Positions 32,199-38,739 of a stretch of DNA of 64,000 nucleotides are shown here, in pieces (the stretch's first letter is position 1; every line of letters begins with the position of its first letter). The stretch spans positions 4,167-68,166 of the forward strand of contig JAGVYH010000067.1 in NCBI GenBank assembly GCA_018303325.1, written 5' to 3'. The notes beneath the pieces were generated by a model. The model did not search any database and was not told the origin of the DNA. It saw only the letters and a program-made list of their open reading frames with translations. This stretch comes from Candidatus Woesearchaeota archaeon (GTDB taxonomy: Archaea; Nanobdellota; Nanobdellia; Woesearchaeales; DSVV01). The position numbers and the translations under genes are program-made.

Positions 32199-33134
32199 CT
32201 ACGTCAGCTCAGGATTTTCTCTTATTCTCACTGTTTGGCTTACAAAGTCCCAGTAGATATAAGTTAGTTTCAAGTCAAAGGTGCTTGTGTAAATCTCATT
32301 TTCAGCAATAGGATTTAAGAATCCATACTTGCATCTGATTACTGTTTCACCGTTTTTAGTAATTCTTACTAAGTCACCAGTGCCCTTTGCAGTGCATTCC
32401 CATCCGTCTGGAACCTGCATTAAAACCTCGTCGTACATTGGCGAAAATTCTTCGAATGTGCTATCGCTTGCTTTTGCCTTGCCGCCGCCGACATTTCTGA
32501 TAGGTATTTCCAAACTGATTCTTCCTTTGCCAGCAGGTCTTTGAATAACTGTACCTATCTGCAATGGTCCGCCAGAGATAAATCCTTGTTTTCCTTCGTC
32601 AATATTACATATCGTAGTTTCATAAGGATTACCTTTGAAACAAACTTTTGGCACAACTATTGTCTGCTCGTAAGGATAAGTGTATTCGACAAATACATTA
32701 GCATCGTAGAATGTTCCTTTGACGCCGCTTACATAAAATGCCTCACCGAAATCAACTAATTCCTCACCACCGTCTGGCAGATATTCAGAAACCTTTTCTA
32801 TCTCTTTAGAATTTGTTTTAACTGGTTCTATACCTTGGAAATCTTCTGGAATTTTTATGCCTTTAATAGCAAACTGAACCATGCCAGCTGGAACAGTATA
32901 TTCTCCTCTGTTGCTAACCCTCACTACAACAGGAATACCCTGATCTTCCCATATTTCTGGCAAACCAGACTGACTGATTAACGAGCCAACATCTTCAAAT
33001 TGTGAAATTAAACCTTCACTGCCACCCATATACGGCGAAGAAACACCTGACTCCAATCTGTTAGTGCATCCAATAACAATTAAAGATAAAGCTAAAACAC
33101 CAATAATTAAGTATCTTAATAATTTCATGTTCAT
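32199..33134 (-). CDS. Secreted lipoprotein-like protein, paralog family (1 of 3)
   Basis: Signal peptide plus Cys (LIVIGC). Conserved block GGPLQIGTVIQRPAGKGRISLEIPIRNVGGG shared with the 33361 and 34382 genes. Confidence 0.6.
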   Translation of the reverse strand: MNMKLLRYLIIGVLALSLIVIGCTNRLESGVSSPYMGGSEGLISQFEDVGSLISQSGLPEIWEDQGIPVVVRVSNRGEYTVPAGMVQFAIKGIKIPEDFQGIEPVKTNSKEIEKVSEYLPDGGEELVDFGEAFYVSGVKGTFYDANVFVEYTYPYEQTIVVPKVCFKGNPYETTICNIDEGKQGFISGGPLQIGTVIQRPAGKGRISLEIPIRNVGGGKAKASDSTFEEFSPMYDEVLMQVPDGWECTAKGTGDLVRITKNGETVIRCKYGFLNPIAENEIYTSTFDLKLTYIYWDFVSQTVRIRENPELT

Positions 33135-33360
33135 CCTCCTCTTTTTCTAATCAGTTTAGTAATTTTACTTTTATTATCTAATCTTAATAAGCCTTTTAAG
33201 GTTAAGTATATTTATCCTTAATAAATCTTTTTATTTATGAATATATAAATTTTTGGTTGTTTAGTTGTATTCACGCATTGTTTCATGCAATTTCTTCTCT
33301 TTCTTAATTGAAATTAAGTGTTTTTCCAGTTATATGTTTTTATTCTGAAACTGAGTAAAC

Positions 33361-35493: not shown

Positions 35494-38400
35494 TTATTTT
35501 GGATTGTATTCTATATAACCTTTAAAATAATTTGTTCCTGACGCTAATTCATAAATCTTAACTTGCGGTATATTTGAGCATGATGAAGATGTTTTAACAT
35601 TTAGAACACAAAACTTTTTACCATTATTATCATAAAATTCCAATGTTTTTGAGGGGGCGTTATATTGTCCATAAACAACAACATCTTCATTATCCTGCCA
35701 GATCATTTGTTTGGTTTTTAACAAAGAATTATAGCTTAAATCAACCAAGACTCTTGTCATATCAAAATATTGTATTTCAAATACAAATTCAGTATTGTCT
35801 GAATTTTTTGATTTAAGCGCAACTCTGATAAATGGGTAGCTGGAATCATGATACCAATTTGAATCTAATGTTTGGCTTTTATATATGTCAAATGTTTTTG
35901 AGAGCAATTCTTTGTTATTATTATTATTATTATTATTATTATTATTATTATAGTTATTATCTTTATTATTCTTGAAAACTTTGATAGTAACAAGATTATG
36001 TTCGCTGTTTGGCTTTATGCTTTTAGTAATCTTAACACTATAACCATTCTTTTCCATACCCTGTTCAATCTCGTCTGCTGTCTGCGTAACCTTAATGCTT
36101 TTAGAAATCCAAAAATTATTGGTATTAATCTCTTCTAATTCTTTGATAGTGTTAAAACCTGACTGTATCTCTGGTTTCTTGCAGTATTCTTTGTAACTTT
36201 CAATATTAAGCAGGAAACCATGATACGTTTTGTAGAAGGCATTTGTTTCGCACAAGTAAGGTTTCTCGCCGCTGCAGGAAGATTGCGCATTATTTGTAGT
36301 ATCTGTGGTGTCTGATAATGGAATAACAGCATCGTAAGTTAATTTGTCATTTTTGAGGGTATCTGTAAATACAACAATCGCATCCTGATTGTCGAGGGTT
36401 TGTGGTTGAATATCACTTAAATGTTCAGTGCTCTTTGATTTAATATCATTCCATAATTGAATGCCATATTTAATGTTAGTATCAGCATCGAAAAGGTTAG
36501 GGTTTTGTTCACCAAACTTTTTTGCAATGGCATTTGAGATATCTGGACTTAAGCCAAGTATACCTTTTCTATTATCAGCATTAAAGTATGAATCGCCTCC
36601 GCTTGTATCTGCAATTAACGCAAAAATCGTACATTGCTCTTCAGGAGAGGATGAAAACTTAATGATAGAACTCCAGCTTTTTTGTGCTATTGATTGGAAT
36701 GCATCTTCTGAATTAATCTGACCAACATTACTATGTTGTACAAAGCTAGAGCCATAACCATCAAGAATTTTTTTAACTTTGACAGATGTTGTTTTTTCTA
36801 TTTCATAATCATATCTTGTTCTTGCCCTGAAATAAATAGGTGTAATGGGCGCAGTTCCTAATAATTTTTCAGGATCATTAACACTGAATTTGCAGCTGAA
36901 TGTTTTATAAGTTTTTATGTTCTCCAATCCTTTTCCAACTGCGCTTGTCTGTAATGAGTAACCAACAAACCCATCAAACTCTTTTGCGCAGGTCTCAGTC
37001 ACACAACTGATTACTTCTGTATTCTTTTTAGCAGTTTCTACACTTTGAGGTTCATATCTGTCAAAGTCAGATGATAATTTTTCTGCACATTCTATAAAGG
37101 GTTTGCTGCTGTGTGAAACATAATCATTAACACAGTTATTTAGATTATTTTTATCACCATAAACAGTGAATGGATGACTGCATGTGTCAAATAATATTTC
37201 CATTGAATCTGGAACTTCTATAATAACTTGATTTATTCTTTTTATTTTGCCTTTCCAGCCATAATTATTGTCGATAGTAACGCCTATCCTGACAAGATTC
37301 TCTGATGTGCCGCTGATATCGCCTACGCCTAAACCACTCATTCCAGCACCGCCAACACCCAGTGGTGGTTTTTTAGTCCCTATGCCTAACATCACAGGAC
37401 CATTAGTAAATACTGCTGTTGGATTTTTGTCTTTGATTCCAAACTCATCTAAAGGATCTATGCCCAATCTTGTCAGGCTTCTTAACCTGTCTTGATACAT
37501 AAAATAAGTCTTTAAATAAGCCATAGTTTCAAAATTAAAGCTTGCTGTTAATGCAACTTGATTGGATTGTTTGATAATTTCTGGCTCTTCAATTGCTGGC
37601 GGGAACCTGCAGTCAACATCCTGTTCACCCATGTCAAAGATAATATATTCTTTTTCAGGGCCAATATCACCTTCAATAAATTTTTGGTTATAATCTGTTT
37701 TATAACCCAAGTAACAGCCTGGTTTAATAATTATGCCGTCGTCTAGGGTTCTTGCCTTGATTATTCCAAAAACATTTATTTGTTCGTCTGGCTCAAATTC
37801 ATAGTCAGCTGCCTTAACTTCTTCGATTGTGACGCCTAATGGTTCGCCTTTAGATTGTTCTATCCTTCCTGCATAATAATCTGCGCCTGTCGCCATCTCC
37901 ATTCTTTGCTGCCAGAACAGTTTGATGTTAAATACTGATTTGGCTATTGTCGAAGCAATATTTTTCCAGAACTCTGTGGATTTTTCAACAACCAATTTTA
38001 GGTTGTCTGAATGCGCCTGTGTGAGCATTAATCCTCTTTCTTCAATTCCCATTTGAGAAACATAAACAGAAGAGAATAAAGCGCCTAACCAGAATAAAAT
38101 AATTGCTAATATTAGCAGGATACTTATTCTGGTTCTTGCCTTGCTTTTTACAAGTACAGCATAATAAAACCACCATGGTGTGAAAAAGGGATTAAATACA
38201 TAACCATATAAAATACCATTGCCTGCTTGGTAGAAATGTGAACTAAAAAAGTCCCATGTTAAATAAAGAGATATTACTACAAACAATTCTTTTATACTTT
38301 CTGTTCTTTCTTCGTCAGGAATAAATGCAAAATAAACAATAATTGCCAAAACAAAATTAATAAATAATTTTGTCCATAAGTTGGTTATCTGAACCAAGAT

Positions 38401-38739
38401 AAGAAAATGAAACAATAAAGAAAATAATATAAAAAGATTAATTCTCCATTTGATAGATGATTCAGTAGAATGGAACGATGATGGTGAAGAATTATCTTTA
38501 TTGCGCTTAAAGATGCCGGCTAATAATCCAGTTGCATTAGAAAATGCTTTTTTCGTGCCTGTTTTGATTGGTGACAGTTTTTCAAGCTCTTCTCTTTCTT
38601 TTTCACTAAGTTCTGCTTCTTTCTCCTTTTCCTTAAGCTCTTTTTTTCGCAGATTATTCTCTTTTCTTTCCTGTTTCCAAGAGCCATATCTATCAGATAA
38701 ATCACTAGTTTTCTCTTTTACCCAATCTTTAATAGCCAT
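35494..38739 (-). CDS. Large membrane-anchored surface protein (1081 aa) with a lytic-transglycosylase (SLT)-like segment and a poly-Asn tract
   Basis: About four N-terminal TM helices. Segment ALIADTSGGDSYFNADNRKGILGLSPDISNAIAKKFG...DADTNIKYGIQLWNDI resembles the SLT-domain E-S...GLMQ / NI..G..YL pattern. NNYNNNNNNNNNNNN is encoded by the (ATT)n run at ~35912..35952. Confidence 0.6.
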   Translation of the reverse strand: MAIKDWVKEKTSDLSDRYGSWKQERKENNLRKKELKEKEKEAELSEKEREELEKLSPIKTGTKKAFSNATGLLAGIFKRNKDNSSPSSFHSTESSIKWRINLFILFSLLFHFLILVQITNLWTKLFINFVLAIIVYFAFIPDEERTESIKELFVVISLYLTWDFFSSHFYQAGNGILYGYVFNPFFTPWWFYYAVLVKSKARTRISILLILAIILFWLGALFSSVYVSQMGIEERGLMLTQAHSDNLKLVVEKSTEFWKNIASTIAKSVFNIKLFWQQRMEMATGADYYAGRIEQSKGEPLGVTIEEVKAADYEFEPDEQINVFGIIKARTLDDGIIIKPGCYLGYKTDYNQKFIEGDIGPEKEYIIFDMGEQDVDCRFPPAIEEPEIIKQSNQVALTASFNFETMAYLKTYFMYQDRLRSLTRLGIDPLDEFGIKDKNPTAVFTNGPVMLGIGTKKPPLGVGGAGMSGLGVGDISGTSENLVRIGVTIDNNYGWKGKIKRINQVIIEVPDSMEILFDTCSHPFTVYGDKNNLNNCVNDYVSHSSKPFIECAEKLSSDFDRYEPQSVETAKKNTEVISCVTETCAKEFDGFVGYSLQTSAVGKGLENIKTYKTFSCKFSVNDPEKLLGTAPITPIYFRARTRYDYEIEKTTSVKVKKILDGYGSSFVQHSNVGQINSEDAFQSIAQKSWSSIIKFSSSPEEQCTIFALIADTSGGDSYFNADNRKGILGLSPDISNAIAKKFGEQNPNLFDADTNIKYGIQLWNDIKSKSTEHLSDIQPQTLDNQDAIVVFTDTLKNDKLTYDAVIPLSDTTDTTNNAQSSCSGEKPYLCETNAFYKTYHGFLLNIESYKEYCKKPEIQSGFNTIKELEEINTNNFWISKSIKVTQTADEIEQGMEKNGYSVKITKSIKPNSEHNLVTIKVFKNNKDNNYNNNNNNNNNNNNKELLSKTFDIYKSQTLDSNWYHDSSYPFIRVALKSKNSDNTEFVFEIQYFDMTRVLVDLSYNSLLKTKQMIWQDNEDVVVYGQYNAPSKTLEFYDNNGKKFCVLNVKTSSSCSNIPQVKIYELASGTNYFKGYIEYNPK

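Follow-up and report, generated by a model that had tools for sequence, protein, structure and literature searches.

A conserved five-gene cell-surface cluster of Woesearchaeales with exchangeable scaffold heads, and a probably non-catalytic SLT-derived head in one lineage

Large extracellular proteins with an SLT (lytic transglycosylase) domain have been reported in Woesearchaeota and Pacearchaeota and have been proposed, in the available portions of the reports, to bind or degrade bacterial cell walls (PMC8204110, PMC9723730, PMC10936187, PMC11537232); as cited in PMC8204110 and PMC9723730, earlier accounts of such proteins were given by Rinke 2013 and Castelle 2015. We analysed a window of 64,000 nucleotides from a Candidatus Woesearchaeota archaeon (GenBank assembly GCA_018303325.1, contig JAGVYH010000067.1), in which four minus-strand open reading frames (ORFs) encode a 1081-amino acid polytopic membrane protein that we call the scaffold protein big (35494..38739) and three smaller proteins, p1 (34382..35458), p2 (33361..34341) and p3 (32199..33134). 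All four ORFs lie at the coordinates and on the strand given by an initial annotation of this stretch. So far as the available portions of the papers describe them, the published Woesearchaeota SLT proteins (fam00969 of Castelle 2021, PMC8204110; Vigneron 2022, PMC9723730) share with big their taxon, size class and extracellular location; big is homologous to carriers of Pfam domain PF01464, and it may or may not belong to fam00969. Unlike those proteins, big has an SLT domain that lacks the catalytic Glu and two further motifs. The same portions of PMC8204110 and PMC9723730 make no mention of a scaffold with five transmembrane (TM) helices, a conserved core, a five-gene cluster or head swapping, and the cluster, the conserved 5-TM scaffold, its exchangeable heads and the degenerate head found here appear to be new details. 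The balance of the evidence tips slightly towards reading the four genes as this genome's version of a cell-surface cluster of five genes, with a non-lytic head in this lineage.

Hydropathy, loop charge and an AlphaFold2 (AF2) model (mean predicted local distance difference test score, pLDDT, of 76) agreed on the layout of big. Residues 1-90 (38470..38739, minus strand, as for all segments of big) contain 23 Lys or Arg and 18 Asp or Glu residues, are poorly conserved, and are predicted to form a cytoplasmic Lys/Glu-rich helix (residues 4-54) followed by a disordered linker (pLDDT below 50 at residues 54-90). The five TM helices follow within residues 91-228 (38056..38469), at about 91-115, 121-138, 142-169, 175-198 and 204-228; the initial annotation had recognized N-terminal TM helices and a large extracytoplasmic region but had counted four helices. 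An NPxxTPWWFYYA motif in this region is found family-wide, and Asn183 and Trp190 are invariant in the scaffold alignment. By the positive-inside rule the N terminus is predicted to be inside and the C terminus outside the cell; a KSKARTR loop before TM5 and the location of all 14 Cys residues after residue 230 fit this topology. Residues 241-655 (36775..38019) comprise an extracellular helical stalk (241-283) and a strongly conserved double beta-sandwich core (302-655; AF2 strands 302-652), followed by an SLT-derived, goose-lysozyme-like helical domain at residues 676-870 (36130..36714; 677-864 in the layout from the model) and a C-terminal beta-sandwich domain with a poly-Asn loop at residues 877-1078 (35506..36111; pLDDT below 50 at 931-940).

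The core is the most conserved part of the protein, with 59-64% identity within the clade of the window and 35-43% beyond it, and its family-defining motifs, FNFETMAYLKTYF, TNGPV and GWKGKI, are invariant columns in the alignments. The ratio of nonsynonymous to synonymous substitution rates (dN/dS) was 0.04 for the core and 0.08 for the whole gene. A Foldseek search with the core gave generic Ig-like matches only. Homologues of big numbered 23 in a word-indexed search and 843 cluster representatives at E≤1e-30 in an exhaustive profile search; judging from the titles of the records, this is a large family confined to Woesearchaeota/Nanoarchaeia. The closest database protein is 89% identical and comes from a Candidatus Woesearchaeota metagenome-assembled genome. 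Pfam and NCBIfam scans gave no significant match in any of big, p1, p2 and p3, a phmmer search of big against PDB sequences matched the poly-Asn tract alone, and the NCBI label "7TM-DISM" on the relative P0021 has no backing in Pfam.

The SLT-like stretch that the initial annotation had picked out in big (ADTSGGDS...GILGLSPDIS...DTNIKYGIQLW) corresponds to residues 710-763; in the alignment it falls on SLT motifs I and II and on the NI..G helix of the homologues. Three independent routes argue for an SLT derivation of residues 676-870. First, PF01464 was detected in seven more distant homologues with E values down to 9e-17, and a range of 4.5e-16 to 6.9e-5 was also recorded for relatives; its carriers include P0008, P0009, P0012, P0013 and P0014 and, weakly, P0005, which is 42% identical to big and reached 22.8 bits, just over the gathering cut-off. 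Second, a profile built from 14 aligned family segments matched Slt70, MltE and LtgA of Neisseria at about 1e-11, the E-S motif falling into register, and a profile restricted to the six sequences of the window clade matched LtgA at 9e-4, in the middle of the domain only. Third, Foldseek retrieved MltE (6ghz, 2y8p, 4hjv) with the AF2 model at a probability of 1.00, with target TM-scores of 0.45-0.57 and root-mean-square deviations of 4-6.5 Å, and a goose-lysozyme-like alpha-helical fold is thus predicted for the head of big. The resemblance noted at the outset was therefore genuine as to descent, but it does not extend to a Pfam SLT match or a catalytic Glu in big itself.

The initial annotation's view of big as a lytic transglycosylase that sits in the membrane and is active on the murein of a bacterial partner would be in keeping with this derivation and fold and with the hypothesis published for the protein class (PMC8204110 and PMC9723730, available portions). 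Proteins of the sister clade, moreover, keep the E-S, GLMQ and AYNxG motifs and are plausibly active. The sequence of big speaks against such an enzyme. No Pfam SLT match was obtained even at E≤1, and no hydrolase domain of any other kind was detectable with Pfam, NCBIfam or phmmer against the PDB. Using Glu478 of Slt70 and Glu64 of MltE as the reference for the catalytic column, we found Thr712 of big (codon 36604..36606, minus strand; translation IADTSGG) at this position of the E-S motif. The distant homologues in the alignment all have xxESxGD, (G/F)LMQ and (A/Y)YNxG, where big has IADTSGGD, GILG (residues 726-729) and TYDAV (residues 801-805). The other five members of the clade have Thr, Ile, Ala, Ala and Thr in the Glu column and have likewise lost the Gln and the Asn-x-Gly, so that the motifs are gone from all six. 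Asp711, next to Thr712, is rejected as a conserved substitute catalytic acid since it is Ala in the 89%-identical protein P0002. The domain is almost certainly no canonical enzyme, and we have high confidence that residues 676-870 are SLT-derived and non-catalytic; that big cuts murein is very improbable, and the initial assignment of a lytic function to it is not upheld.

Loss of the catalytic Glu is not restricted to this clade. Among the 69 family representatives with an SLT head, the column holds Glu in 42 and another residue in 19, and the remaining 8 were unaligned. In a tree of the core domain, which is a rough neighbour-joining tree without support values, the window clade forms a monophyletic degenerate group that is sister to an intact group, and a second degenerate group (L015, L016, L020) is placed elsewhere; this tentatively suggests at least two independent losses. 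The SLT domain of big is under purifying selection and is not decaying. Its dN/dS value against the L007 orthologue is 0.14, looser than that of the core and far below 1. Across the 14 aligned SLT segments there is no variation at Cys703, Ser713, Gly715 or the Cys with which the segment ends, at about residue 822. By analogy with other inactivated hydrolases, the head of big most likely binds glycan or gives structural support, without catalysis.

The order of the four genes, for which the initial annotation had proposed a check in relatives, is conserved. Neighbourhoods of relatives with 45%, 43%, 31%, 28% and 32% identity contain big-p1-p2-p3 in this order, flanked by the same RFC and PRC-barrel genes. 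Reciprocal BLAST identified p1, p2 and p3 as each orthologous across loci, so that the triplication is ancient. A scan of GTDB species representatives yielded 102 genomes with a relative. In a scan of 86 loci with hidden Markov models (HMMs), the core model matched every locus and a five-gene order, up-big-p1-p2-p3, was found in nearly every locus of sufficient length; almost all of some 80 related genomes share it. The window itself has the 5-TM region with the NPxxTPWWFYYA motif, the core motifs, and p1-p2-p3 directly downstream of big.

The fifth gene, up, is conserved, encodes about 390-700 amino acids across loci and lies directly upstream of big in other clades; its product carries a membrane anchor at the N terminus and matches no Pfam family. 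In the clade of the window up is not adjacent to big. Its orthologue (556 amino acids, TTG start; 15525..17195, plus strand) was identified by tblastn (47% identity to L003_up559, E 4e-164) and by the position of the gene at other loci, and it is located 18 kb from the module on the opposite strand, an arrangement that would fit an inversion of the segment running from big to PRC. The N-terminal anchor of up (RKAQSAAGAAGLVALLAVFIVLY) bears a vague resemblance to archaeal signal peptides of the pilin type. A Cys-rich insert is common to the up proteins of the window and L003; it is similar to the Cys-rich tails with CCxxDCxxC repeats in which the SLT-intact relatives end (the scaffolds of L003 and L013-L016 and the C termini of P0009 and P0016) and which the window clade lacks.

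Across Woesearchaeota/Woesearchaeales the cluster has been passed on by vertical inheritance. Origin as a mobile element or weapon island is ruled out by the synteny with FEN1, RFC, PRC and Pelota genes that is kept in distant relatives. A Woesearchaeota-type cluster with the same synteny is also present in many GTDB records titled "uncultured Methanosarcinales archaeon" (L012-L016, L018, L019, L023, L024 and others), and the cluster occurs in L069, an 80-kb record titled "Candidatus Aminicenantes bacterium" (JAFCCF010000001.1). These titles are probably mislabelled, or the contig mis-binned.

Scaffold proteins range from about 560 to 1250 amino acids or more, and directly after the conserved core they carry a head of one or two hydrolase domains, or nothing. 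SLT heads were found in 69 of 158 representatives with the family HMM and in 12 more with Pfam. Other members have a GH73 glucosaminidase (L041, 3.7e-17), an NlpC/P60 domain (P0182 and P0191) or an Amidase_2 domain (1e-29), and the 1017-amino acid protein P0174 has a double head consisting of SLT (648-744) followed by Amidase_3 (825-1008; 6e-20). The head of P0018 is M23-like, and because neither of the LytM motifs HxxxD and HxH occurs anywhere in this protein we judge the head to be degenerate; the sequence of P0018 gave no match in the PDB. Additional modules after the core are fn3, PKD and crystallin domains, and 28 of the 158 representatives are headless. That six unrelated families, all specific for bacterial peptidoglycan, occupy one position on one carrier suggests that murein is what the apparatus is normally directed against. 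We have moderate confidence that bacterial murein would be the usual target of the heads, with the head families as the strongest indirect evidence. The initial annotation had reasoned that a murein-lytic domain in such an organism would make sense only against a bacterial partner, unless it acts on pseudomurein or another glycan. The idea of a bacterial partner gains indirect support from the assorted peptidoglycan-hydrolase heads of the relatives and is, in the available portions of PMC8204110 and PMC9723730, already a published hypothesis.

The main competing explanation sees in the cluster a housekeeping envelope system that acts on a surface polymer of the archaeon itself, be it the glycan of an S-layer or a wall of murein- or pseudomurein-like type that has escaped discovery, with the heads serving as autolysins for growth or division. 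The bacterial-target idea would then be wrong. Presence of the cluster in almost all genomes sampled from the order, its conserved position beside RFC, PRC-barrel, Pelota and FEN1 genes, the frequency of headless forms and the strong purifying selection on the core would all fit such a system. Six unrelated head families for the glycan, amide and peptide bonds of bacterial-type peptidoglycan are, however, hard to explain without murein, and heads have repeatedly been lost or inactivated, unlike what is expected of an essential autolysin. No DPANN archaeon is known to make murein, which also counts against an envelope role. A search of the literature on murein synthesis in Woesearchaeota or on the five-gene cluster found nothing specific. 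We regard this explanation as unlikely.

Three points nevertheless weigh against our preferred reading of a surface cluster with a non-lytic head in this lineage. The cluster is universal in the order and stands among the housekeeping genes FEN1, RFC and Pelota, and many of its members are headless; the basic role of the scaffold may thus be unrelated to bacteria. P0005 and P0006 carry a Glu one position earlier than the canonical one, and a non-canonical catalytic residue is possible. Finally, binding of glycans by a dead SLT domain is argued by analogy with pseudo-hydrolases.

If the four genes are indeed the local copy of the surface cluster, the scaffold would be anchored by its five TM helices with the stalk, core, head and C-terminal beta domain outside the cell, and the apparatus would normally confront bacterial cells with a module directed at murein. 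The head found in this lineage would no longer cleave glycan strands and may instead be a non-lytic glycan-binding (adhesin-like) or structural element. The three small proteins, with their lipobox and tandem Ig-like domains, and up could be membrane-tethered subunits or adaptors of the same complex, and we have moderate confidence that the five proteins would form one complex. It is conceivable, as a more tentative extension, that the cluster is the main host-contact apparatus of the order Woesearchaeales, with the head swapped among six hydrolase families or inactivated. Were this so, bacteria rather than archaea would be the usual partners or prey of Woesearchaeales, and lineages such as the present one would have switched from lysis to non-lytic attachment.

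BLASTP comparisons gave E values of 2e-13 for p1/p2, 3e-9 for p2/p3 and 5e-6 for p1/p3, and the alignment of the three proteins has 35 invariant columns, N-G-G and Cys residues among them. By these comparisons p1 (358 amino acids), p2 (326) and p3 (311) are true paralogues; p1 and p3 have orthologues at other loci, that of p1 in the same slot, and p3 is 73% identical to its L002 orthologue and 45% identical to that of L003. The paralogy noted in the initial annotation is thus real. With n and h regions followed by [LVI][ASTVI][GAS]C as the lipobox criterion, the hydrophobic segment ends in a lipobox-like Cys in each protein (LTAC in p1, LISC in p2 and VIGC in p3), and this Cys is at least 90% conserved among 40 family members. 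All three, rather than the two initially listed, are therefore putative lipoproteins by signal-peptide pattern. The QGAP(V/L)A(V/I)T.IE block that had been described as common to the three is present in p1 and p2, but p3 has SGGPLQIGTV. At the annotated start of p2 (34303..34341) a 25-residue polar extension precedes the hydrophobic segment, and Met13 (MQSNNKK...) may be the true start.

A tandem beta-sandwich is predicted for p1, and in the AF2 model of p2 (pLDDT 87.7) two beta-sandwich domains come after a helix at the N terminus. Foldseek matched this model to generic Ig-like tandems at TM-scores of about 0.2 (integrin legs, complement MG domains, WxLIP and PapD-like chaperones) and found no specific family. 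One further possibility is that the paralogues and the scaffold core belong to one domain family, the paralogues being detached copies of the ectodomain that take part in a homo-family assembly resembling a pilus or sheath. Alignment of the profiles with hhalign gave the co-linear motif pairs YxYxT/FNFETMAY, QGAP/TNGP and N.G.G/NNYGWKG and a terminal long strand; the order of secondary-structure elements in the AF2 models is similar, and both models match the generic PDB targets 8xen_A, 7akk_E, 3vu1_B and 2zai_B. However, the hhalign E values of 0.1-0.4 are no better than those of reversed-profile controls (0.07-0.55), and the Foldseek matches are to generic Ig-like folds at TM-scores of about 0.2. 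Homology between paralogues and core is not established by these values, and we consider a common domain family doubtful.

The distal beta domain of big contains an AAT microsatellite (35914..35970, minus strand), which Tandem Repeats Finder reported as 18.7 imperfect copies at 35915..35970 and which is the sole trinucleotide array in the window at a score of at least 60. The initial annotation had given the repeat as (ATT)14; the coding strand has a perfect (AAT)11 followed by AAC (35914..35949), which encodes 12 Asn residues (931-942). Its expectation that the poly-Asn tract varies in length was borne out. Over 11.2 kb that include all four genes, the window and contig L087 from a second assembly (ENA ERZ27254745) differ solely by a 21-bp (AAT)7 indel in this tract, and the resulting difference in the Asn tract is the only one between protein P0001 and big. 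More distant relatives have 10 Asn residues or almost none at this position. Changes in tract length stay in frame because the repeat unit is three bases, and on/off phase variation is ruled out for the same reason. The variation is real and local: it alters a surface loop, which has low confidence in the AF2 model, and not on/off expression. In the proposed apparatus it would make an exposed Asn loop of the distal beta domain longer or shorter and so change the surface of the scaffold.

The window has a GC content of about 32%, and the module is flanked by archaeal housekeeping genes for the RFC small subunit (31063..32124) and FEN1 (39417..40541). A 226-bp gap before p3 holds an AT-rich, TATA-like element, and an Rfam scan of the window found nothing. 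Next to FEN1, at 40538..41248 and 41398..42480 on the minus strand, lie genes for a 236-amino acid lipobox protein (VLGC) and a 360-amino acid protein without a Pfam match. Synteny upstream of FEN1 extends to both genes in L002 and L087 and, in L001, to the gene for the 360-amino acid protein only; the two may or may not be related to the surface module. Between the latter gene and a SpoIIM-like gene are tandem arrays (42697..42784) of a 14-bp unit in 2.1 copies and of the 7-bp unit CTAGCAC in 5.6 copies, which are unusually G+C-rich for this genome. Farther along, an Orc1/Cdc6-like AAA+ gene (50081..51280, minus strand) lies next to a gap of 1.2 kb without long ORFs that contains a 16-bp repeat in 3.7 copies (51474..51532) and an 8-bp repeat, CTTCTTTC, in 15.4 copies (51604..51729); the region 50081..52500 is a candidate replication origin.

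The large SLT proteins have been the sole published molecular hint toward bacterial partners of Woesearchaeota. With the present data this hint becomes a defined system that consists of a conserved scaffold, four accessory genes and a swappable head, which many lineages have as a murein hydrolase and others in a dead form. Counts of GH23/SLT domains as "peptidoglycan degradation potential" overstate activity, since the catalytic Glu is missing from at least 19 of the 69 SLT heads of the family. Compared with the GH23 family 1 lytic transglycosylases (Slt70, MltE and Neisseria LtgA), big shares the predicted fold and profile similarity over the helix after motif II, and it keeps the Ser and Gly after the catalytic position. 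It differs from these enzymes in lacking the catalytic Glu, the Gln of GLMQ and the Asn and Gly of AYNxG, and in having the domain inside an archaeal polytopic membrane protein. The dead LytM factors EnvC, NlpD and DipM (PMC10336132) are likewise cases in which a hydrolase fold has been kept under selection after catalytic loss, and the M23-like head of P0018 provides a parallel to such degenerate LytM factors within the scaffold family. LytM factors regulate the autolysins of the bacterium that makes them, whereas the host in the present case lacks murein and has no known partner hydrolase. Phage endolysins, bacterial autolysins and polymorphic effectors are modular hydrolases with interchangeable catalytic domains, and the scaffold family resembles them in having GH23, GH73, amidase, NlpC/P60 or M23 modules at one position of a conserved carrier. 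Unlike those secreted or phage-borne modular hydrolases, the carrier here is a chromosomal, vertically inherited 5-TM scaffold accompanied by four conserved accessory genes.

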